The position numbers and the translations under genes were made by a program. DNA of 46,532 nucleotides from a phage: sequence record PZ379549.1, one strand, 5' to 3'. Under the pieces are notes generated by a model, which worked only from the letters and a program-made list of their open reading frames with translations, made no database searches and was not told where the DNA came from. Below, one piece after another: positions 1,980 through 36,282 of the stretch; within the stretch, counting starts at the first letter, position 1; the number at the start of each line of letters is the position of its first letter.

Positions 1980-2381
1980 TTAGTCTAGACGAACATAAAA
2001 ACGAACCGGGATAAACCACCCAGACTTGGATTTGATAACGGGGTTAACAACTCCAGACTCATAAATGGTCCCGCTGTCAAGCATTGTACCATCAACGATA
2101 GATTCTGCCAATTTATTAGCGATTTGTCTGGGCCTGTCAATTCCAGTACCAGGACTGAAGAATACTGAAATTTGAACCATGCCTACGTAGTATTTGCACT
2201 TCCTGCTTAATCCGTAGGTTACGGTGTCAACCTCTGTATAGTCGTACTTAAGCCAGATTGATCCATCGGCAGGAGGAGTAAACTTACAGTTCTCCCAAGC
2301 GACTGGATATCTGACCGGAAATTCATTTACCAACAAATCGTTGACGAATTTCCTTGCTGCTAATGATAATTCATATTGCAC
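1980..2381 (-). CDS. putative tail terminator / neck protein
   Basis: 133-aa ORF between neck block and major tail protein; function inferred from position only. Confidence 0.35.
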   Translation of the reverse strand: MQYELSLAARKFVNDLLVNEFPVRYPVAWENCKFTPPADGSIWLKYDYTEVDTVTYGLSRKCKYYVGMVQISVFFSPGTGIDRPRQIANKLAESIVDGTMLDSGTIYESGVVNPVIKSKSGWFIPVRFYVRLD

Positions 2382-3927
2382 GACGTAGCCTCCTCTACAG
2401 CTTCCTGGAAATACCTGCCCAACCTTGCTTGCACCACGCCAAGAACGCCAGCCGGAGCCTGATTCGAAGCCCCATACTCAAGGTCAGCAGGCGTAATCAA
2501 GCCTGTTAGTTATGTAGATAACACTTTGTCGCTGGTGAATTAGCCACAGCTCGAGCTTGCCTTGCCAGATACCTTTTTGTATGCTCCACCTGTTTTGATC
2601 GTAATCATTCAGAGACTGAGCTGAGCTGGGGAGTTCGCTGTAATCTGCCAGTTAGCCTTAAACCTACCAGTATCAACAGGCGATAAATCCACGATGGCGT
2701 TAGCAGCCTTAATTACCGTGTCGGCAGACAACAATATCAGAGAAGTTATCATCAGCTCTATCAATCCAATCAGCAATAGCTATTCGTCAAAGGTAGCCAA
2801 CACCACCAATATTTCTAGCCATAGGTAGCCACCCTCCTTAGAATTGGTCTGTAAGCCAACTACTAGTTCCTGTTGGTTTGACTGGCCTCGGGTCGACTAC
2901 AGTGTAAGTTTCATCTTCAACTATAATCCTGATAGCCCTGCAAGATTGCGGACTTCAGACAGTGAAAATTCCACGCTTGTCACCAAACTGGATATATTCG
3001 CCATCAATATCTCTGCGTTTTAATCTCCCTCACCAAGCCCCTTGATTGAAATGCAGTTGCCGCCAGCTACAGGAACCTCAACGCCGTCAACGATTTCGAC
3101 ACCATCCTTTACCAGTATTCATCTCGTGAATGTACCATCTGCCATCACTAAAGATAGTTGATGCCCGTGCGCATTAATTGATTCTACTTGGGAGTAATTC
3201 ATTGGCAACCGCACTCACCGCCAGCAGCGGACGTAATCAAGCCAAATCCGCCGCCTTTCTTGCGCAGGAGATTCCTAGTAAAGTGCGGCCCCACGGCGTA
3301 GCTGATCAATGATGACCTTGAGTTTGCGAGGTGGATATCATAAGCTGATAGAAAATTCACCGCTCAGCGGAGTAACTTGCCACCTTCTATGGCCATATAT
3401 CATCCAGCGACTTCATTCTCGCCCTTAAGCGCGCCATCAAGAAAGGCATCATGTGCAGATGTGTATAGTCCGACAGCGCTTTATAAGCATCATGCACCAA
3501 ACTTACTGGTCGCAGATGTATAGACTTAGCTAACTCAAGCCATACGTCCAGCGATTCGTCATCTGGAATATTCTTAAGAGCAGGAACCAGCGACTTGCAT
3601 AAAGGCTAATGCTTGTATCGTTCATAAAACCTCCATACAATAAACGGACGCCGAAGCGCCCTGTTTGGTTATTTGTACTCGTTGACCAGTCTCAGCCTCG
3701 GCAGATGGTTTTCGGTTCTTTGCGCTTATATTCTTGCTAACAACTTCTTGCGACGATTTGTTTGGTTGCCTTGGTGTCACCCTCAACCTGGTGAGTTGAC
3801 CCTCTGCGATTAAACGCTTGAGCCCAGTCGCAAATTACCTCAACCTCGAATGAGTGTCACCAGGCAAATATTTCTCACCTTTGTAAACGATAATCGTGCA
3901 CGCTCCAGTGTGTTCTAAACGAATCAT
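2382..3927 (-). pseudogene. frame-disrupted block of head-tail connector/neck genes (at least 4 genes)
   Basis: No ORF >=60 aa on either strand over about 1.5 kb; good RBS+ATG starts at 3927 (AAGGAG) and 3625 (GGAGG, ATGA overlap with upstream stop) each run into stops within 15-30 codons while adjacent frames continue protein-like sequence. Confidence 0.45.
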
Positions 3928-3993
3928 TTATTGCTCTCCTTTTATTAATTGATGGTTGATTATAACCCAACAAATCCATTTAGGTACAGACGT

Positions 3994-9171: not shown

Positions 9172-9246
9172 TTTTTACTCCTCTCGTTTGCGTGAAGTAA
9201 CTATAAGCCATCCTTGGCGGCACGTCTTTAGCAAAACGTGCTATTT
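9172..9246 (-). promoter_or_regulatory. box-hairpin-(-10)-leader unit upstream of moron
   Basis: Box at 9226-9246 overlapping TerL stop (TAG), hairpin GCCAAGGATGGC, TATAGT, CACGCAAACGAGAGGAG, ATG 9171. Confidence 0.4.
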
Positions 9247-11890: not shown

Positions 11891-11966
11891 TGGTGTTCCG
11901 CACTGGACTCGAACCAGTAACTAAGACTTAGGAGGTCTTTGCGTTATCCTGTTACGCCAGCAGAAC
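11891..11966 (-). tRNA. tRNA-Arg (anticodon CCU, reads AGG)
   Basis: Hand-folded 76-nt cloverleaf: acceptor GTTCTGC/GCGGAAC, D-arm GCGT-AACAGGATA-ACGC, anticodon arm AAGAC-CTCCTAA-GTCTT (U33, CCT, A37), variable AGTT, T-arm ACTGG-TTCGAGT-CCAGT, discriminator A, encoded CCA. Confidence 0.8.
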
Positions 11967-12912: not shown

Positions 12913-12990
12913 ATCTCTATCTCTCTTCGTTGTTTGATGGGTTAATTATATGGCATCCATGCCTGTCATGTTTAGCAATTCGTGCTATCC
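12913..12990 (-). promoter_or_regulatory. box-hairpin-(-10)-leader unit
   Basis: Box 12971-12990, hairpin GGCATGGATGCC, ATATAATT, CCCATCAAACAACGAAGAGAGA, ATG 12912. Confidence 0.4.
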
Positions 12991-15634: not shown

Positions 15635-16156
15635 CTATTTAGTCTCCTTAATCATTTCTTGGTATGCGTTAATCATTGATACTGCACCCTTAAGTTCATC
15701 ACCTTCAAGACCAGCGACGCTTGGTGATAGTTTCAACAATCGAGCCTTGAACCTTTCAATGGTAGCCCCCTCCTTCTCTTGCTCTGCTTTGCTTCTTGAG
15801 CCGGATTTTACAGCGCCAGGAACCAGGCTAAGTGATGCGCAGTATGTCTCACTCTCGCCCTCAAAGTCGGTAAAACTAAGTGAGAACCTTGAGCGCACGT
15901 CAGCCGCCTTAATCTCAGGCATTCGGCTTACGGTGTTTGAAACGTATGACGCTTTTAGTTTTGGCATGTGGTATTCACCACCAGGTAGAACCTCCTCACC
16001 ACTTAGCGATACGAACGTCTCACGACTCATGCCGAAGTATTGACGAGCAATCATGGTCACAGGGACTGTGCACACTTTGTCTTCTGACTTGAGCGCCTGA
16101 CTCGCCATGTATCGAATGATTTCACCCAAACTTACTGCTTCTTTATGTTCTGACAT
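15635..16156 (-). CDS. hypothetical protein (first gene of leftward unit)
   Basis: 173-aa ORF adjacent to AT-rich control region. Confidence 0.45.
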   Translation of the reverse strand: MSEHKEAVSLGEIIRYMASQALKSEDKVCTVPVTMIARQYFGMSRETFVSLSGEEVLPGGEYHMPKLKASYVSNTVSRMPEIKAADVRSRFSLSFTDFEGESETYCASLSLVPGAVKSGSRSKAEQEKEGATIERFKARLLKLSPSVAGLEGDELKGAVSMINAYQEMIKETK

Positions 16157-16277
16157 ATTCGTTACTCCTGATTGGTTGCTCTTCGTTAAGATGAAACCAT
16201 GGTATCATGAATATACGCGTTATCAAGTGTTATGTTGTGTTTATATCTGCATTGGTTACGCTTTTTGACCTCTCAGC

Positions 16278-16291
16278 CCAGCTATAGCTGG
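16278..16291. promoter_or_regulatory. perfect 14-bp palindrome CCAGCTATAGCTGG
   Basis: Read directly; core AGCTATAGCT recurs at 35217-35226. Confidence 0.4.
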
Positions 16292-16407
16292 TGTAATTAC
16301 CCTGTGTAAGATTTTACGCGGATTCGCCGGGGGTATGCATATGTATCTATATAGATAAAATTAGTAGTTTTCATAGAAAAACTATCGACCCATCCATACG
16401 ACCAATC

Positions 16408-16495
16408 TACACCATATACATACATATATATAATAATAATAATAATATAGTAAAAGGTTGATATATATAGATATTATTATGTAACCATTGCGTAA
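16408..16495. repeat. AT-rich control module copy A, includes (TAA)5 microsatellite at 16431-16447
   Basis: About 85 percent identical to 35357-35439 by eye. Confidence 0.6.
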
Positions 16496-16642
16496 TCTAG
16501 CGTGGTAGGCGTGTATGATTCTTCGGAAGCGCACCTCATATACACACCATAACTTCGATAACGTGTATATCCAAATTGGCTCAGCAAGAATCAAAATCAA
16601 CTTGTATGGTAGTCCATCCACCATTCATTCACCCCACATCGA

Positions 16643-16743
16643 TCATTGCAAATTCTGCAACAATCAAAAACATCATTGCATTCGATGCAATATTGCTATA
16701 TGTGCAATAATGATGATGAATCATTGCAATAGCTGCAACAATC
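16643..16743. promoter_or_regulatory. operator/iteron-like array of TTGCAA-family sites
   Basis: 23-bp direct repeats TCATTGCAA-N4-TGCAACAATC at 16643-16665 and 16721-16743 flanking inverted repeat ATTGCAT-tcg-ATGCAAT at 16675-16691. Confidence 0.4.
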
Positions 16744-16755
16744 TATAAATCCAAC

Positions 16756-16830
16756 GAATAGCACTTTTTGCTAATGCACAATCATTAGTAAGTTGCTACT
16801 ATGTATTCATCGAAACGGTGCTGGACTCTG
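16756..16830 (+). promoter_or_regulatory. box-(-10)-leader unit at head of rightward small-ORF cluster
   Basis: Variant box 16756-16776, then TATGTATT, CATCGAAACGG. Confidence 0.35.
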
Positions 16831-17759: not shown

Positions 17760-17923
17760 TGCTTTTACCATCTGATATAAACTATTTCGATCTGGAAATA
17801 ATTAGTGCTTACAGCGGAAAGGGTTGGCCTTGCGGGGACTGGTTTAACGAGGACCTGCTTGAGTCTCACGAGATTATGTTGAAGGCAATTGAGAAGGCCA
17901 GAAAAAATAGCACTAATTGCTAA
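17759..17923 (+). CDS. hypothetical small protein ending ...KNSTNC
   Basis: 54-aa ORF translated by hand; C-terminus and stop encoded by box. Confidence 0.3.
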   Translation: MLLPSDINYFDLEIISAYSGKGWPCGDWFNEDLLESHEIMLKAIEKARKNSTNC

Positions 17924-18700: not shown

Positions 18701-18760
18701 TAATGCATTATAAGCGGCTATTGATATAATGGCCGCTCAGAAACAATGCGGAGAGAAGTA
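18686..18760 (+). promoter_or_regulatory. box-hairpin-(-10) unit
   Basis: Variant box 18686-18703, hairpin GCGGC..GCCGC enclosing TATAAT. Confidence 0.4.
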
Positions 18761-20023
18761 ATGTTTGATTTCAATGAAGATAAACTATCTGTTGAGCAAG
18801 TTATGGCGATCGCTGCCAATGACAACCTACCACCGCTTCGCGTGGCTATTAATGCCAATGGCTATCGACAGTCTCAATCGTTCTGGAAAGCACCTGTCGA
18901 GATTGATACAGGTAATGATAAGTATCCAGTAATCTCACTCGGTAATGATATTGATGTTGTTGGTAAGCTATCGGCTAATATCGCTCGCTCGGTTCAGTTC
19001 CCTGAGTCGTCAGCTTACATGCACTTTCTTGGTTGTGTTTCTGCTGCAATGCTTGGGCGTTTTACTGTCGAGTATCATGGAACCCAACAGCCAACATCTT
19101 TGTACGTGGTAACAAGTCAGCCGCCTTCAACTGGTAAATCAGCCATTAACTCGCTATCAATTGCGCCGATGATTGCTGAGACTGAGCGGTTGAATGAAGT
19201 ACGTAAACGTGATCGAAAAAAGATTATGGCTAAACTGTCCGCTCTGGCTAAAGAGATGAAGCAGGAGAAATCACCTTCTGAAATGGCTTCACTTTTTGAG
19301 GAGAAGGAGGATTTAGAGGAGAAGCTCGAGAAGCTATGCGATATAGTATTCCCTGTCTCCGATACTACTCCGGAAGGTCTTGCGCGAATCAACAATCGCC
19401 AGGGTAATTTTGCGGTAATCTCTGATGAGGCTACTAGCGTCAACTCACTGTTAGGCATGACTTACGGTGATGGCTCGAAGAAAACGAACAGCGAGCTCGT
19501 GCTGAAAGCATGGGATGCAGGTAATGTGTCAATTGCCCGTGCGAACGCAGAAAATAACATGAGCTTTGTGGCTATGGGATGCATCTCCGTAATTGCTCAG
19601 GATGAAACAATCAATGCCATTATGAATGCTGGTGCGCGTGGTATTGGTGTATCTGAGCGTTTCCTTCTGGTGCGTGAAAAATCATTTCTTGGCGACCGTG
19701 TATTTGTTGATGAAAATGGTGATTCAACCTATGAGGCTATTGATGGCGGCCTGAAAGCAGACTATTTCCGTCTTGTTCATGAGATTATGAATGAAGTTGA
19801 AGTGAAACTTACTGTAAGCGCGTCATCAATGCGTTACCTTAACCGCGCTCGTCAAGAGATGGAGCCTCATCTTGGTGATGGTGGCAAGTATTCTCACACA
19901 ATGTTGCGCGGTGCTCTTGGTAAGTTTGATAAGCAAGCAATCCGCATCGCTTCTGTTCTGCACGTAATTCGTAACTGGTTCTCACCAGCCGGATCCAGCC
20001 CTCAAGAAGTCAAGAGAGATTGA
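18761..20023 (+). CDS. P-loop NTPase, DUF3987-like (replication-associated?)
   Basis: Walker A-like SQPPSTGKS and Walker B-like FAVISDEATS; ATG 18761 with GGAGAGAAG RBS (track start 18746). Confidence 0.45.
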   Translation: MFDFNEDKLSVEQVMAIAANDNLPPLRVAINANGYRQSQSFWKAPVEIDTGNDKYPVISLGNDIDVVGKLSANIARSVQFPESSAYMHFLGCVSAAMLGRFTVEYHGTQQPTSLYVVTSQPPSTGKSAINSLSIAPMIAETERLNEVRKRDRKKIMAKLSALAKEMKQEKSPSEMASLFEEKEDLEEKLEKLCDIVFPVSDTTPEGLARINNRQGNFAVISDEATSVNSLLGMTYGDGSKKTNSELVLKAWDAGNVSIARANAENNMSFVAMGCISVIAQDETINAIMNAGARGIGVSERFLLVREKSFLGDRVFVDENGDSTYEAIDGGLKADYFRLVHEIMNEVEVKLTVSASSMRYLNRARQEMEPHLGDGGKYSHTMLRGALGKFDKQAIRIASVLHVIRNWFSPAGSSPQEVKRD

Positions 20024-20033
20024 ACTGGATACA

Positions 20034-20246
20034 ATGCAGGAAGCGGTTATGATTTTCAACGAACTAAGCAAGACTTATTTATCATCCGCTAGTGCTGCTG
20101 GTCATGCTGGTGACAATGCCGAGATGAACAAGCTGGTTGATATCCTGATTAAGCAGGGCAAGAATGGTAAAGGTGTTGTTGGTGTTCGCTCGTTGTATGA
20201 GGCTGCACGCAAGGTTAAACCTTTTGAAGCTCAGGCTGGAATGTAA
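20034..20246 (+). CDS. hypothetical protein
   Basis: 70-aa ORF. Confidence 0.4.
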   Translation: MQEAVMIFNELSKTYLSSASAAGHAGDNAEMNKLVDILIKQGKNGKGVVGVRSLYEAARKVKPFEAQAGM

Positions 20247-24463: not shown

Positions 24464-24712
24464 TCAACCTCTTTCAACCAAAAGTCCAACAAAGTCAGCA
24501 CAAATTGCTAATTTCTTGTCCAGGTCAGTCATGCACAGGTTTCCACATGATGGTGAATAATAAATCTGTACCCACTTGCCATCTTTAGTCTTCGCATTAA
24601 CATCTACGTAGTCAGGAGGAAACCAGTCAGAAATAGGGATTGCTCTAAACTTATTCCCACTACTACCATGTACTAAGTCATAATGCCCAGGCTGAAAATC
24701 TAATCCCAACAT
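24464..24712 (-). CDS. hypothetical protein
   Basis: 82-aa ORF. Confidence 0.35.
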   Translation of the reverse strand: MLGLDFQPGHYDLVHGSSGNKFRAIPISDWFPPDYVDVNAKTKDGKWVQIYYSPSCGNLCMTDLDKKLAICADFVGLLVERG

Positions 24713-26008: not shown

Positions 26009-26263
26009 TCAATCCTCCATCGTAAATGATTTGTTGGCGATAATATCTTGCGACTTCTGATTCTTGCGGTGCGTAATCCTTAGCGGCGCACGGAAAAGAT
26101 GTGCATTTGTCATAATCATTTTAGCATTACGCAATCTGCCAATCCTAAAAGCCTCAGTCCTGTTCTCGATGTGAGTTGAGCAAAACGCCTTCCATTTGAC
26201 AGAACAAACACGATGGTCTGACTCCGGGAAGAATGTTTCATAAGCTCGGAATCTTGTCACCAC
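26009..26263 (-). CDS. hypothetical ORF (possible frame-shifted helicase tail or separate small gene)
   Basis: 84-aa ORF overlapping helicase 3' end. Confidence 0.25.
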   Translation of the reverse strand: MVTRFRAYETFFPESDHRVCSVKWKAFCSTHIENRTEAFRIGRLRNAKMIMTNAHLFRAPLRITHRKNQKSQDIIANKSFTMED

Positions 26264-28006
26264 TGTGAGCCATTACCTCATATGAAGCAACGATCCCTGA
26301 CTGGTTCTTTGTTAACCCAATCTTGAAGTCATAAACTCGCAACCAGTCCCCCTTACGATACATTTTTCCTGATAACTTAGCATTCGGGTCTATGAGCATC
26401 TCACCACAGCATCTGCAATTCTTAGCTGCAATATCATTCTTCTCACCGCATCCTTTCTTAATGATAGCTTTGGTCTGTGGGTCCGCTATATCTTCACACA
26501 GTCTAAACTGAAAGAAGTGCTCACAGCGCTTCCAGTCAATTACGTTATTGCAGCGCCTGGCTAATTGAGAGTTCACATAAGAGCATGCCGGACAGATTCT
26601 TGGCTTATCACCACGCTTTCTTGCTGACCTAAATTTCTGGTCTTGTACCTCTTCTATAATTGGGTCGAAGTAAAGTTCAGCCATATCATCAAGCGTTCCA
26701 GCAAAATCAAGAACAACATGGTCATCTTTTACCATTCCAGCTTCTTTGTGCTTCTTCTTAAGGATACGCATACCACGACCAAGCAACTGAATGAGTAGAG
26801 TAATGCTACCAACCTTCCTCAGGATAATGCTTGTATCCCACGGGGGGCAGTTTACGCCAGTTGTGAGGCAACCAATCTGAAATATGAACTTATATTCTCC
26901 GTTGGCTGCCTTCTCAAGTATCTCTCTACGCTTCTTCTCACCAGTGGAGTTGGTAACTATCGCCCAAGTAACACCTTCTAGGAAGTGCGGCTGCCGCCTC
27001 CATCGCAATGCTGTTTGCCAGCGCAAGTTACCAATGCAGCATTCCTTGTTTCCATAAACTTAGCAGCAAATCCCATTATCTTTTGTGTCATCGTTTGGTT
27101 TTCGTGAATCTTTGCAGCCATCGCATCCATTTCTTTCTTGCTGAAGTCCTTAACCCCATCACTTCCATCAGGAGTGAACTCACTAAGGTCGTAGCCCAAA
27201 TCACCAACTTCACCGTAGACAGTAGGAACAACGAACCCCAAGTCAACAAGGTAGCTGGTTGGCACTTGCATTACAGTTTTGCGCCAGAATCCACGGACAT
27301 TTGGGTTACTAACTACAATGTGGTCGTTGTTACGGTACGGGCTGCCAGTCAAACCGAAGATGCGTAGTTCGCGACCATACTTCTCTTTGCAGCGTCTCTT
27401 CATCTCAGTAATGATTAGCGTGTACTGCGCACGACCAGTTCCGAGCAATCCGGTATTCACTCCATCCTTGAAAACCATCTCACCCTTCTTCGTGCTCATC
27501 TGCTCGAATGTTTCCTCGTTCTCTTCAGCTTCTACGATATCCATATGGTCAACCATATGACATTCATCTATCGCAATAACGGCAGGAACATAGTCACCAA
27601 GGCCCTTAAACAAGCCGTTAGCAGCCGTGCCCTCACTAGCCACTATGGTTGGGTAGTAAACTGATTTAACGTTAAGGCCAGCGCAATAGACGCTATTACG
27701 GATGCCGAAGTTACGAAGCTCTTCAGCGTTCTGGCTGATAATTTCTGACTGGCGAGAAAGCACCATGTAAGGAAGCCCAAGCTGTTCCATGCGCTTTCCA
27801 ATCATGGCAAGAATAATTGTCTTACCAGCAGATACAGACAGGTCTGCGATGAATGGGGCCTCGTACTTTCCAATAGCCTTCCCAATTGCATCAAATGTCA
27901 CACACTGGAATGGGTAAGGAGTGATTTCTCCAAACTGGTAATCTCTCTGAATCTGCTTAATCTTCTCTTGATCGAAGTTGGCTACTAAGCGCTCTACTGG
28001 AAGCAT
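26238..28006 (-). CDS. SF2 DEAH-box helicase with C-terminal Cys-rich region, one frame change near 26978-27026
   Basis: N-part ORF 26978-28006 has Walker A SAGKT and DECH; C-part ORF 26238-27026 has motif VI QLLGRGMR; the two overlap in different frames. Confidence 0.65.
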
Positions 28007-30051: not shown

Positions 30052-30115
30052 TTGCCTGAAAGATGGTAGAATGAATTTTGGCAATTAGTGCTACTTTACA
30101 AATGGAGACTTTACA

Positions 30116-32678: not shown

Positions 32679-33116
32679 TCAGAATGGAATATCTCCGTCG
32701 AATGTGTTTTGCTGTTGTTGTTGTTGTTGTTGCTGTTGATGTTGCGGTTGATGGCGCTGTTGTTGCTCTGTATTTTTATGTTGCTGTGCACCCTCACCAC
32801 GCTGACTAAACTCAAGACGAGGATTGTTCATGTTAATTGTTATGTAAGTCTTGCCATCTTTATCTCGAACATCTAATGCTAACGTCTCACAACTTACGCT
32901 AACAATCTTCCCTTCCTGAAACGCTTCGTTATACCATGTAAGCATTGATTCCTTTGCGAAGAAGACGGCACGATAGTTGCTATACTGAGATTGACCATCT
33001 TTATCCTTGTAACGCTCACTTAAATCAACCGCGTACATCTTCCAACTGCCATTTGCATTCTGACCTTCTTTAGTGAACGGAGCGCGACGGATAACACCAG
33101 TGATTACATGACTCAT
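32679..33116 (-). CDS. ssb: single-stranded DNA-binding protein
   Basis: OB-fold-like N-terminus, Gln-rich linker, canonical acidic C-terminal tail ending DGDIPF. Confidence 0.8.
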   Translation of the reverse strand: MSHVITGVIRRAPFTKEGQNANGSWKMYAVDLSERYKDKDGQSQYSNYRAVFFAKESMLTWYNEAFQEGKIVSVSCETLALDVRDKDGKTYITINMNNPRLEFSQRGEGAQQHKNTEQQQRHQPQHQQQQQQQQQQNTFDGDIPF

Positions 33117-33807: not shown

Positions 33808-33884
33808 TAACTATCTCTCTTTCGTTTAAGTGGGGCAATCATACCTCACCTTTTGATTTTGTCTTTAGCAATTAGTGCTATTTT
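33808..33884 (-). promoter_or_regulatory. box-(-10)-leader unit upstream of erf
   Basis: Box 33863-33884 containing exonuclease stop TAG, TATGAT, CACTTAAACGAAAGAGAGA. Confidence 0.4.
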
Positions 33885-35047: not shown

Positions 35048-35356
35048 TTCTGTATCTCTCTGTTTGCTTGCTTGCTTGCTTTCGATGGTTTAACTATATA
35101 TTCAGCGCCGCACCCAGTCCAATTGGTTTCGCCAATCGTTGATTTAAGTTTACGCGTGAATTCTTGTAATTCCGTGTGTACATTGGAACTAGTTACGTTT
35201 TTTGGTACCTGAGCCAAGCTATAGCTCAATGTAAATAGTGCGTATATCATGTATATCATTTATTGCTGAGGGTGCATTGGTATAGCTACCGCGCAATACT
35301 GTATAAATCCACATGATATTAAAATTATAACCGAAACACTCCATAAGAGCAGTTAC

Positions 35357-35439
35357 ATGATATACATAGTAATATATATAATAATAATAATAAGAGTAAA
35401 AGGTTGATATATATATATATTTTAATGTAACCAATGCGT
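35357..35439. repeat. AT-rich control module copy B, includes (TAA)n and (TA)n tracts
   Basis: About 85 percent identical to 16408-16495 by eye. Confidence 0.6.
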
Positions 35440-35515
35440 AAATTGGCGTAACATTGCGTATATCATTTTTCGCGGATGAGATTGCATACATCGAGTTACA
35501 TCGGTTACGCGTAAA

Positions 35516-35591
35516 CATAGCACTAATTGCTAAAACTGATCCGCAAAACCGGGTATAGTTAGCAACACAAACAACGAGAGAGAATTTTAAA
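35516..35591 (+). promoter_or_regulatory. box-(-10)-leader unit upstream of methyltransferase
   Basis: Box 35516-35535, TATAGT, CACAAACAACGAGAGAG. Confidence 0.4.
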
Positions 35592-36282
35592 ATGGTTATC
35601 TGGTCTTTATTTGATGGTTCTGGTCTGGCGGTAAAGGATTGGGCTGAAGCTGGCCACACTTGCTACTGTTTCAACTTTGATGAGTCTGACCACGGCAGCT
35701 ACAGTGACTTAAATGCAAAGGTTGAGCATGAGAACATCACATACGTTAACGCATGGATAGATGCTGACTTCGATTTTGATGTGAAACCTGATTTTATAAT
35801 GGCGTTCCCTCCATGCACTGACTTAGCCGTGAGCGGATCAAGACACTTTGAACGCAAGTGTACTAGCTAACCCTAACTTCCAAATTGAAGCTGCGGAGAC
35901 GTGCAAGATTGCTTTTAATCTTGCTGAAAAATACGGAGTACCATACATGATCGAGAACCCAATCAGCGTACTGTCATCACTTTGGCGAAAACCTGATAAC
36001 ACCTTCCACCCATATGAATACGGAGGCTATTTGCCGGAAGATGATTTACACCCGTTTTTTAGCGACCTAATAAAGCCAAAAGACGCATATCCCAAGAAGA
36101 CATGCATTTGGTATGGCAATGGGTTTAAATGGCCAGAGGCAATTCCAGTGGACGTTAACGGTGGATTCTCTGACCAATACAAGAAGCTAGGCGGGAAGAG
36201 CAATAAGACAAAGGTAATTCGCAGCCTAACTCCTCGCGGTTTTGCAAAAGCCGTCTTCATTGCAAATAGCACCAATTGCTAA
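35592..36282 (+). CDS. C5-cytosine DNA methyltransferase-like, one frame change near 35848-35870
   Basis: Motif I LFDGSGLA, PC motif FPPCTDLAVSG, ENV-like MIENP; two overlapping ORFs in different frames. Confidence 0.5.

Follow-up and report, generated by a model that had tools for sequence, protein, structure and literature searches.

Two copies of an AT-rich module in the intergenic regions of an Rtp-like phage as candidate replication origins

The R6K gamma and pSC101 origins contain an AT-rich tract, an IHF site and helically phased direct repeats, and in SPP1 (oriL/oriR) and P4 (ori/crr) two related cis-acting sites carrying the same short repeats lie kilobases apart. The replication of T1, one of the seven classic T phages, was reported to be DnaA-independent, and its origin has never been located. 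SaPI Reps load themselves as initiator-helicases: iterons of five or six nucleotides on either side of an AT-rich centre are recognised by their C-terminal winged helix (PMC9371898). Authors of T1-like genome papers state that they found no origin (PMC7718038, PMC11447400). The literature that we covered, outside which the original T1 and Rtp genome papers fall, yielded nothing on the mapping of a T1-like origin or of transcription starts, and nowhere mentioned the duplicated AT-rich module, its conservation throughout the family or the lineage repeats reported here.

We analysed the window, i.e., the whole 46,532-nucleotide stretch of phage DNA in sequence record PZ379549.1. It derives from an Rtp-like phage (Drexlerviridae, Braunvirinae) and is colinear with phage Rtp over its whole length, in reverse orientation. 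Two intergenic regions (IGRs) are central to the analysis:

16157 to about 16876: IGR1, equivalent to the rtp75/rtp1 junction, which holds position 1 of the Rtp record
35048-35591: IGR2, equivalent to the gap between rtp45 and rtp46/recE in Rtp

Both are divergent, with minus-strand genes at left and plus-strand genes at right, which bears out the strand switch described in an earlier note on this DNA. IGR1 is flanked at left by a DUF7174 gene followed by many small genes and at right by small genes and a gp09-like helicase gene, while IGR2 lies between a 64-aa gene with the recE-erf-ssb operon at left and a split C5-methyltransferase gene at right. BLAST searches with both IGRs retrieved about 135 phage records, nearly all of them Escherichia phages of the Drexlerviridae.

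These regions had been called the only two long non-coding ones, which holds for intergenic regions; positions 2381-3949 likewise contain no open reading frame of at least 60 aa. The latter segment is 80% identical to the Rtp structural genes rtp29-32 and is therefore frameshift-fragmented coding sequence, not an intergenic region. Conserved genes occur as short open reading frames at 2381-3949 (head-tail connector), 26238-28006, 18746-20246 and 35592-36282; among them are an Rtp53-like helicase split into 342 and 262 aa (26238-28006) and the C5 methyltransferase split into 92 and 144 aa (35592-36282). The connector and helicase genes are 77-80% identical to Rtp at the DNA level, and the methylase gene has no Rtp counterpart. 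From the fragmented 2381-3949 segment and the split helicase and methylase genes, we conclude that the assembly carries frameshift errors, probably indels. The module sequence can be considered reliable, since phage ES and an independent Logan assembly carry exactly the same module.

The identity of the two module copies, estimated by eye as about 85 percent in the earlier note, proved accurate: gapped global alignment of 16408-16503 with 35354-35449 gave 83 matches in 98 columns (85%) with two 2-nt gaps. A repeat search of the genome gave 76% for the same segments without gaps, and the narrower limits used previously (16408-16495 and 35357-35439) give 73/90 (81%). The local alignment score of 119 lies 18 SD above the 29 +/- 5 (maximum 49) obtained with 500 context-preserving shuffles of copy 2, made by single-base swaps between positions with identical neighbours, and the remaining low-GC windows of the genome all score 30 or less. 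The resemblance is consequently one of colinear homology and not of AT-richness alone. Aligned with MAFFT, the homology pairs about 16245-16520 with 35183-35470 (~280 bp), with a diverged middle segment, and passes leftward through GTTACG(C/T)TTTTTG and the palindrome AGCTATAGCT, of which the window holds two exact copies only. As had been noticed, this palindrome precedes both copies (119 and 128 bp to the left), its first coordinate having been off by one base.

Part order and orientation are the same in both copies, namely two T(A/C)TACA units, a (TA)n(TAA)5 tract, AGTAAAAGGTTGATATATATAGATATT and four phased hexamers:

16408-16514, plus strand: core of module copy 1, made of TACAnnnTATACA, (TA)n(TAA)5, an IHF core and four phased hexamers
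35354-35461, plus strand: core of module copy 2, with the part order and orientation of copy 1
16408-16422, plus strand: left block of copy 1, TACACCATATACATA, two T(A/C)TACA units 10 bp apart (Tandem Repeats Finder, period 10 at 16413-16432)
35354-35369, plus strand: left block of copy 2, TACATGATATACATAG
16424-16449: pure A/T run of 26 nt holding (TAA)5 at 16431-16445, proposed unwinding element
35366-35425: second least stable 60-bp window of the genome (dG -54.7), holding (TAA)5 at 35379-35393, proposed unwinding element
16451-16463, minus strand: perfect match TATCAACCTTTTA to the IHF consensus WATCAANNNNTTR, AT-rich on its 5' side
35397-35409, minus strand: perfect match TATCAACCTTTTA to the IHF consensus
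16480-16514, plus strand: four iteron-like hexamers of copy 1, TGTAAC at 16480, GCGTAA at 16490, GCGTGG at 16500 and GCGTGT at 16509 (spacing 10, 10, 9)
35426-35461, plus strand: four phased hexamers of copy 2, TGTAAC at 35426, GCGTAA at 35436, GCGTAA at 35446 and GCGTAT at 35456 (spacing 10, 10, 10)
16245-16320, plus strand: upstream arm 1, with GTTACGCTTTTTG, the palindrome AGCTATAGCT at 16280-16289, and G[CT]GTAA at 16256 (minus), 16291 (plus), 16304 (plus) and 16314 (minus)
35183-35265, plus strand: upstream arm 2, with GTTACGTTTTTTG, the palindrome AGCTATAGCT at 35217-35226, then TGTAAA, GCGTAT and ATGTAT (Tandem Repeats Finder, period 9 at 35242-35263)

The (TAA)n microsatellite claimed for both copies is thus present in each as (TAA)5. 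By nearest-neighbour calculation, the least stable 60-bp window of the genome is 16420-16479 (dG -54.2); set against a genome-wide mean of -80.8 (SD 4.8) and a third-lowest value of -63.9, the modules lie about 5.5 SD off. Each core therefore holds an AT-rich segment far less stable than its surroundings. The match TATCAACCTTTTA lies inside the reverse complement of AGTAAAAGGTTGATATATATAGATATT and is preceded by an AT-rich tract, so that the sequence presents an IHF core together with the expected 5' flank; the window contains four perfect consensus matches in all, two of them being these predicted sites at the module centres. Beside the AT core, the four hexamers stand on the right (in copy 2, Tandem Repeats Finder reports period 10 at 35435-35460) and further units on the left. 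G(C/T)GTA(A/T) units also occur further out, in either orientation and on either side of the modules, and the two IGRs together hold 17 matches to G[CT]GTA[ATC] where 2.9 would be expected. Tandem Repeats Finder detected the period-10 and period-3 arrays independently, 9 of its 20 rows for the genome falling in the two IGRs. In Rtp, the 7-mer CCGCGGA, which is part of TTCCGCGGAA palindromes, is confined to its two IGRs, with six occurrences; in the window, these palindromes are present in degenerate form only, TTACGCGGATTC at 16316-16327 and TTTCGCGGATGAG at 35469-35481.

The order of AT tract, IHF site and direct repeats phased by the helical turn recalls the R6K gamma and pSC101 origins, and iterons next to an AT-rich region likewise recall the lambda origin. 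The iterons of these three origins, however, are 18-22 bp long and bound by RepA/pi/O-type initiators whereas the units described here are hexamers, and the window shows no DnaA box enrichment. Two related sites kilobases apart in a small genome are reminiscent of SPP1 oriL/oriR and P4 ori/crr, and a P4-alpha-type primase is common to P4 and T1-like phages. The repeated 5'-TA(A/G)-3' of the DnaA-trio, located in the unwinding region of bacterial origins beside initiator sites, is comparable to the (TAA)n run, although DnaA boxes are neither adjacent nor enriched in the window and the trinucleotide run is absent from the corresponding T1 and A127 islands. Hexanucleotide repeats on both sides of a central AT-rich region are shared with the SaPI origins of S. 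aureus and with SCCmec Cch, and so is the combination of an MCM-like AAA+ helicase bearing a C-terminal winged helix with a separate primase. Unlike the window modules, the SaPI origin is single and lies immediately downstream of rep, while two copies exist here, copy 1 being about 2.2 kb from the helicase gene; the IHF consensus and the (TAA)n microsatellite are further features that set the window modules apart.

Conservation was examined in six Braunvirinae (window, Rtp, MSK, 12397V, A110b and T145P1), all six of which keep both copies. Orthologous identity at copy 1 is 0.78 in the core vs 0.49 in the left flank (200 bp leftward), a signature of selection on the core, and at copy 2 it is 0.95 vs 0.85. 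Copies 1 and 2 of one genome share an identity of 0.69-0.82, and the copies group by locus rather than by genome, meaning that the duplication is old and the copies are not being homogenised. The sequences thus point to an old duplication under purifying selection, with no gene conversion, and concerted evolution or recombination between the copies was rejected on the same pattern of identity. The non-repetitive blocks GTAAAAGGTTGATA and TGTAACCAnTGCGTAA are conserved in the 12 copies of the six phages while the flanks diverge. The IHF consensus is present in 11 of these 12 copies; substitutions in its core are few and mostly at N positions, the events being too few for a formal test. The (TAA)n tract varies from 3 to 7 units over the subfamily and is constant among near-identical isolates. 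A phase-variable microsatellite was discarded, (TAA)5 being identical in the window, phage ES and the independent assembly. Of the module parts, Rogunavirinae retain the (TAA)n tract, the left block and four phased GCGTA units; their central block differs and their IHF consensus is degenerate.

We then compared 10 Drexlerviridae genomes taken from GenBank phage records, namely the six Braunvirinae, T1 (Tunavirinae), A127 (Tempevirinae), Webervirus mtp23 and Enterobacter phage BHUENT1. In all ten, the two 80-bp windows of lowest GC (10-19%, the third-lowest having 20-29%) occupy two fixed positions, one in the pac region and the other about 270 bp upstream of recE. Within T1, A127, mtp23 and BHUENT1, each island is similar to its counterpart in the same genome (blastn E 3e-10 to 4e-22); between lineages the islands are largely unalignable, and only weak blastn matches (E 1e-3 to 8e-5) link them to the Braunvirinae modules. 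Each of these lineages has a short repeat of its own. TGTAACA of T1 is confined to the islands (6 of 6 genome-wide occurrences), and the islands also hold 8 of the 13 copies of GATAACA in A127, 14 of the 18 copies of GTAAGAT in Webervirus mtp23 and 12 of the 16 copies of the same heptamer in BHUENT1. The lineage repeats and the Braunvirinae unit have a GTAA or TAAC core in common, which suggests that a single conserved DNA-binding protein with drifted specificity may stand behind all of them. A127 carries a perfect but different IHF core, AATCAATAAGTTA, at both island centres (2/2); the exact IHF consensus is absent from the islands of T1, Webervirus and BHUENT1. In three recE-carrying phages outside the family (DS8, PJN025, Border_ER3), no intergenic region precedes recE, so that the arrangement ends at the family boundary. 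In complete E. coli genomes and PLSDB plasmids, nothing matched IGR2; the module has therefore not been taken over from the origin of a host or plasmid, and no satellite bearing it was seen. Scans of IMG/VR by flanking proteins returned 5 loci with the DUF7174 query and none with the recE query.

Two phage proteins were retained as candidate partners of the modules:

18746-20246, plus strand: gp09-like DUF3987 helicase, fragmented here (425 aa + 70 aa) and intact in relatives
15635-16156, minus strand: DUF7174 protein, first leftward gene of IGR1, whose model has a winged-helix-like domain at the N-terminus and two long helices at the C-terminus

The full-length homologue of the gp09-like protein is MCM-like and ends in a C-terminal winged helix. 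This C-terminal domain is 94-100% conserved within the Braunvirinae and has diverged faster than the ATPase core between lineages with different repeats (identity 0.38 vs 0.76 for Webervirus, 0.58 vs 0.79 for A127, 0.49 vs 0.62 for T1). Such divergence would fit a specificity domain, yet terminal domains may diverge faster for other reasons than co-evolution with the repeats. ST77 of T1 is a marginal homologue of the DUF7174 protein encoded at the equivalent position. The window also encodes a primase with a P4-type zinc ribbon (Zn_Ribbon_Prim) and a Cro-like regulator (gp23 homologue).

Promoter-like elements flank both modules:

16199-16226, minus strand: sigma-70-like promoter TTGATA-16-(TG)TACCAT of the leftward DUF7174 gene (15635-16156), conserved in Rtp
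35093-35121, minus strand: sigma-70-like promoter TGGACT-17-TATAGT of the leftward 64-aa gene and recE-erf-ssb operon
16758-16774, plus strand: family-wide box ATAGCACTTTTTGCTAA, heading the rightward unit of IGR1
35517-35533, plus strand: box ATAGCACTAATTGCTAA, heading the rightward unit of IGR2

Each copy is thus followed by a box, as claimed earlier, and the modules can be said to head rightward transcription units by position only, the box promoters being separate elements downstream. Within the modules, promoter-like matches reach only 9-10 of 12 hexamer positions and are generated by the (TAA)n tract.

Of the three candidate roles put forward in the earlier note (origin, early-promoter or UP region, recombination hotspot), origin is the best supported, by the stability minima, the phased repeats, the IHF consensus, the conservation and the MCM-like helicase. 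The combination of these predicted features is the standard grammar of a replication origin. Since the genome papers cited above report no origin for the family, we favour the reading of the two modules as the phage's two replication origins, to which we attach about an even chance of being right; it accounts for an unwinding-prone core, repeats that track the lineage, an IHF site in two lineages, divergent promoters and a helicase of the self-loading class. Each repeat would then be the core of a ~280-bp cis-acting assembly site, one adjoining pac and the other upstream of recE-erf-ssb. A phage protein, most likely the gp09-like MCM-type helicase through its C-terminal winged helix or alternatively the DUF7174 protein, would bind the phased G(C/T)GTA(A/T) hexamers flanking the AT-rich core, and host IHF would sharply bend the DNA at the central consensus site. 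The (TA)n(TAA)n tract, the easiest-melting DNA of the genome, would open, whereupon the helicase would self-load, the phage primase would prime and host DNA polymerase III would extend. Divergent transcription from the flanking promoters may add negative supercoiling and thereby aid melting. In a more elaborate and improbable version, the modules would form a coupled origin pair for the self-loading helicase, perhaps with looping between the two sites 19 kb apart as in P4 ori/crr, and (TAA)n, more than an AT-rich filler, would act by analogy with bacterial DnaA-trios as a single-strand element in trinucleotide register, read by the AAA+ helicase after IHF bending.

Several observations count against two origins. 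The hexamer of the Braunvirinae is degenerate as well as short, outside the Braunvirinae and A127 the IHF consensus is missing in its exact form (T1, Webervirus, BHUENT1) or degenerate (Rogunavirinae), and two origins in a 46-kb genome are unusual. One hexamer unit, GCGTAT at 16213, falls within the leftward promoter's spacer, and the ST77 promoter region of T1 lies between the members of an inverted GTGTAACA pair, a pattern that looks operator-like. Moreover, the in-silico annotation of phage EC3a places two divergent phiSITE promoters inside copy 2. These last points are also what would be seen if the modules were early-transcription control regions, i.e., a paired operator or enhancer with a loose resemblance to lambda OL/OR or to the IHF-containing early operator of Mu; this is the main rival reading, real but less likely. 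The DUF7174 protein or the Cro-like gp23 homologue would set, together with IHF, the activity of the divergent early promoters, and the AT tract would trap RNA polymerase, act like a UP element or contain a weak promoter itself. The modules do lie between divergent clusters with small early-type genes, hexamer units are also found at or near the leftward promoters, and the product of the gene on the left of IGR1 has a winged-helix-like N-terminal domain, the position of that gene being conserved out to T1. Both copies match TATACA-16/17-AATAAT at 9 of 12 positions, because (TAA)n offers a -10-like hexamer every 3 bp. Against this reading, promoter-like matches in the two regions stand at or below those of shuffles (5 vs 7.3 and 5 vs 5.2), no hexamer pair in the module beats chance, and the invariant block GGTTGATATATATAGATATT puts no -10 at 16-18 bp from its own TTGATA. 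The identifiable promoters stand off from the AT core by about 180-290 bp on its left and about 70-270 bp on its right, too distant for a UP element, which would lie immediately upstream of a promoter (-40 to -60). The early-promoter/UP candidate of the earlier note loses ground accordingly but keeps some probability. Lambda OL/OR and the Mu operator are similar in being paired or IHF-containing control regions with divergent early promoters and repeated regulator sites, but they are not extreme AT-rich stability minima, and lack microsatellites, and in the window no promoter demonstrably overlaps the module core. Operators would also leave two extreme stability minima in every family genome unexplained, and with 14 of 18 copies of one 7-mer gathered there, the two Webervirus islands look more like iterons than like operators. 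Both readings could hold together, given that transcription-activated origins exist in T4 and T7.

An architectural or accessory role, in which IHF or H-NS bends organise the injected or packaged genome, assist pac or provide a RecE/Erf recombination entry for concatemers, appears unlikely. Copy 1 is located 130-230 bp from four TTGCA-N5-TGCAA palindromes (16646-16738) matching the starts of the Rtp and T1 records, in phage MSK a reported PhageTerm start lies about 90 bp to the right of copy 1, copy 2 adjoins the recE-erf-ssb operon, and IHF sites serve packaging in lambda cos. Copy 2, however, has no pac-type palindrome, no such role explains phased lineage-specific hexamers, and recombination between direct repeats 18.9 kb apart would be lethal through deletion of essential genes. 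This last argument, together with the lack of concerted evolution between the copies, leaves the recombination hotspot proposed earlier without support. As for a chance likeness of low-complexity AT-rich DNA devoid of function, (TA)n and (TAA)n runs arise easily by slippage; the alignment score relative to shuffles and to other AT-rich windows, and the maintenance of the two non-repetitive blocks, refute it and leave it almost no probability.

Should the favoured two-origin reading be correct, the question of the T1-type origin narrows to two conserved ~100 bp targets for which host IHF, the phage primase and the MCM-like helicase with its winged-helix tail are plausible trans-acting partners. 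Fermentations are notoriously contaminated by T1-like phages, which are also candidates for therapy, and a defined origin would aid phage engineering, packaging and replication vectors, and the understanding of MCM-type self-loading helicases in Gram-negative viruses. The coupled-pair version, if true, would provide the first origin architecture for the T1 family and, for a virus of bacteria, an example of origin melting of the MCM type that involves a trio-like element. Were early control the actual role, the modules would be master switches of early transcription in the T1-like family.

Other candidates were tried and rejected. A hairpin or cruciform origin or a small RNA is disfavoured as both modules fold no better than shuffles on both strands (z -1.3 to +1.0), and a search for structured RNA with Rfam at the gathering threshold returned only a tRNA-Arg. 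This single tRNA (anticodon CCT; 11891-11966, minus strand) is as reported for other T1-like phages. An oriC-like DnaA-dependent origin was set aside because DnaA boxes (TTWTNCACA) form no cluster at the modules and are under-represented genome-wide; with one mismatch allowed, such 9-mers number 73 in the whole window against 112 +/- 12 in shuffles. GC skew merely tracks the direction of transcription and is of no use as an origin signal.

The palindrome cluster at 16646-16738, which has no further exact copies in the genome, is a probable pac or small-terminase recognition site: position 1 of Rtp corresponds to 16697 of the window, and position 1 of T1 starts in the equivalent palindrome. With the cluster and these record starts 130-230 bp to its right and no TTGCA-N5-TGCAA palindrome near copy 2, the modules themselves do not coincide with pac. 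Genome ends at the pac-side position were already known for T1-like phages (PMC7718038, PMC11447400).

The box corresponds to a 21-nt repeat, aaATAGCACnnnTTGnTAAAA, already described without assigned function for TLS, T1, Rtp and Rogue1 (PMC11447400). This Drexlerviridae repeat resembles the modules in sitting in both IGRs, right of each module (PMC11447400), and differs in being a separate element outside the duplicated module, present once per transcription unit. In the form ATAGCACnnnTTGnTAA, it has 18 copies in the window against 1.7 expected, e.g., at 9228-9244 (minus), 12972-12988 (minus), 16758-16774 (plus), 17907-17923 (plus), 33865-33881 (minus), 35517-35533 (plus) and 36266-36282 (plus). 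The boxes point along local transcription, bar two among the weakest matches (24495-24511 and 30078-30094). The spacing fits neither sigma-70 -35/-10 nor sigma-54 elements, and ATAGCAC-N3-TTGC was rejected as a sigma-54 -24/-12 promoter since the GG/GC distance is 2 bp short and AG takes the place of GG. In the copies that were inspected, the box precedes a variable short hairpin and a TATAnT hexamer about 22 bp after TTGCTA.

Two other repeats lie near the genes left of IGR2. A (TGT)n or 12-nt TGTTGCTGTTGA repeat array at 32705-32762, at the 3' end of a 145-aa minus-strand open reading frame (ssb homologue region), encodes a low-complexity tail. A perfect (TTGC)4.5 repeat at 35064-35081 occupies the 5' leader of the leftward 64-aa gene (start 35047), just upstream of its RBS region.
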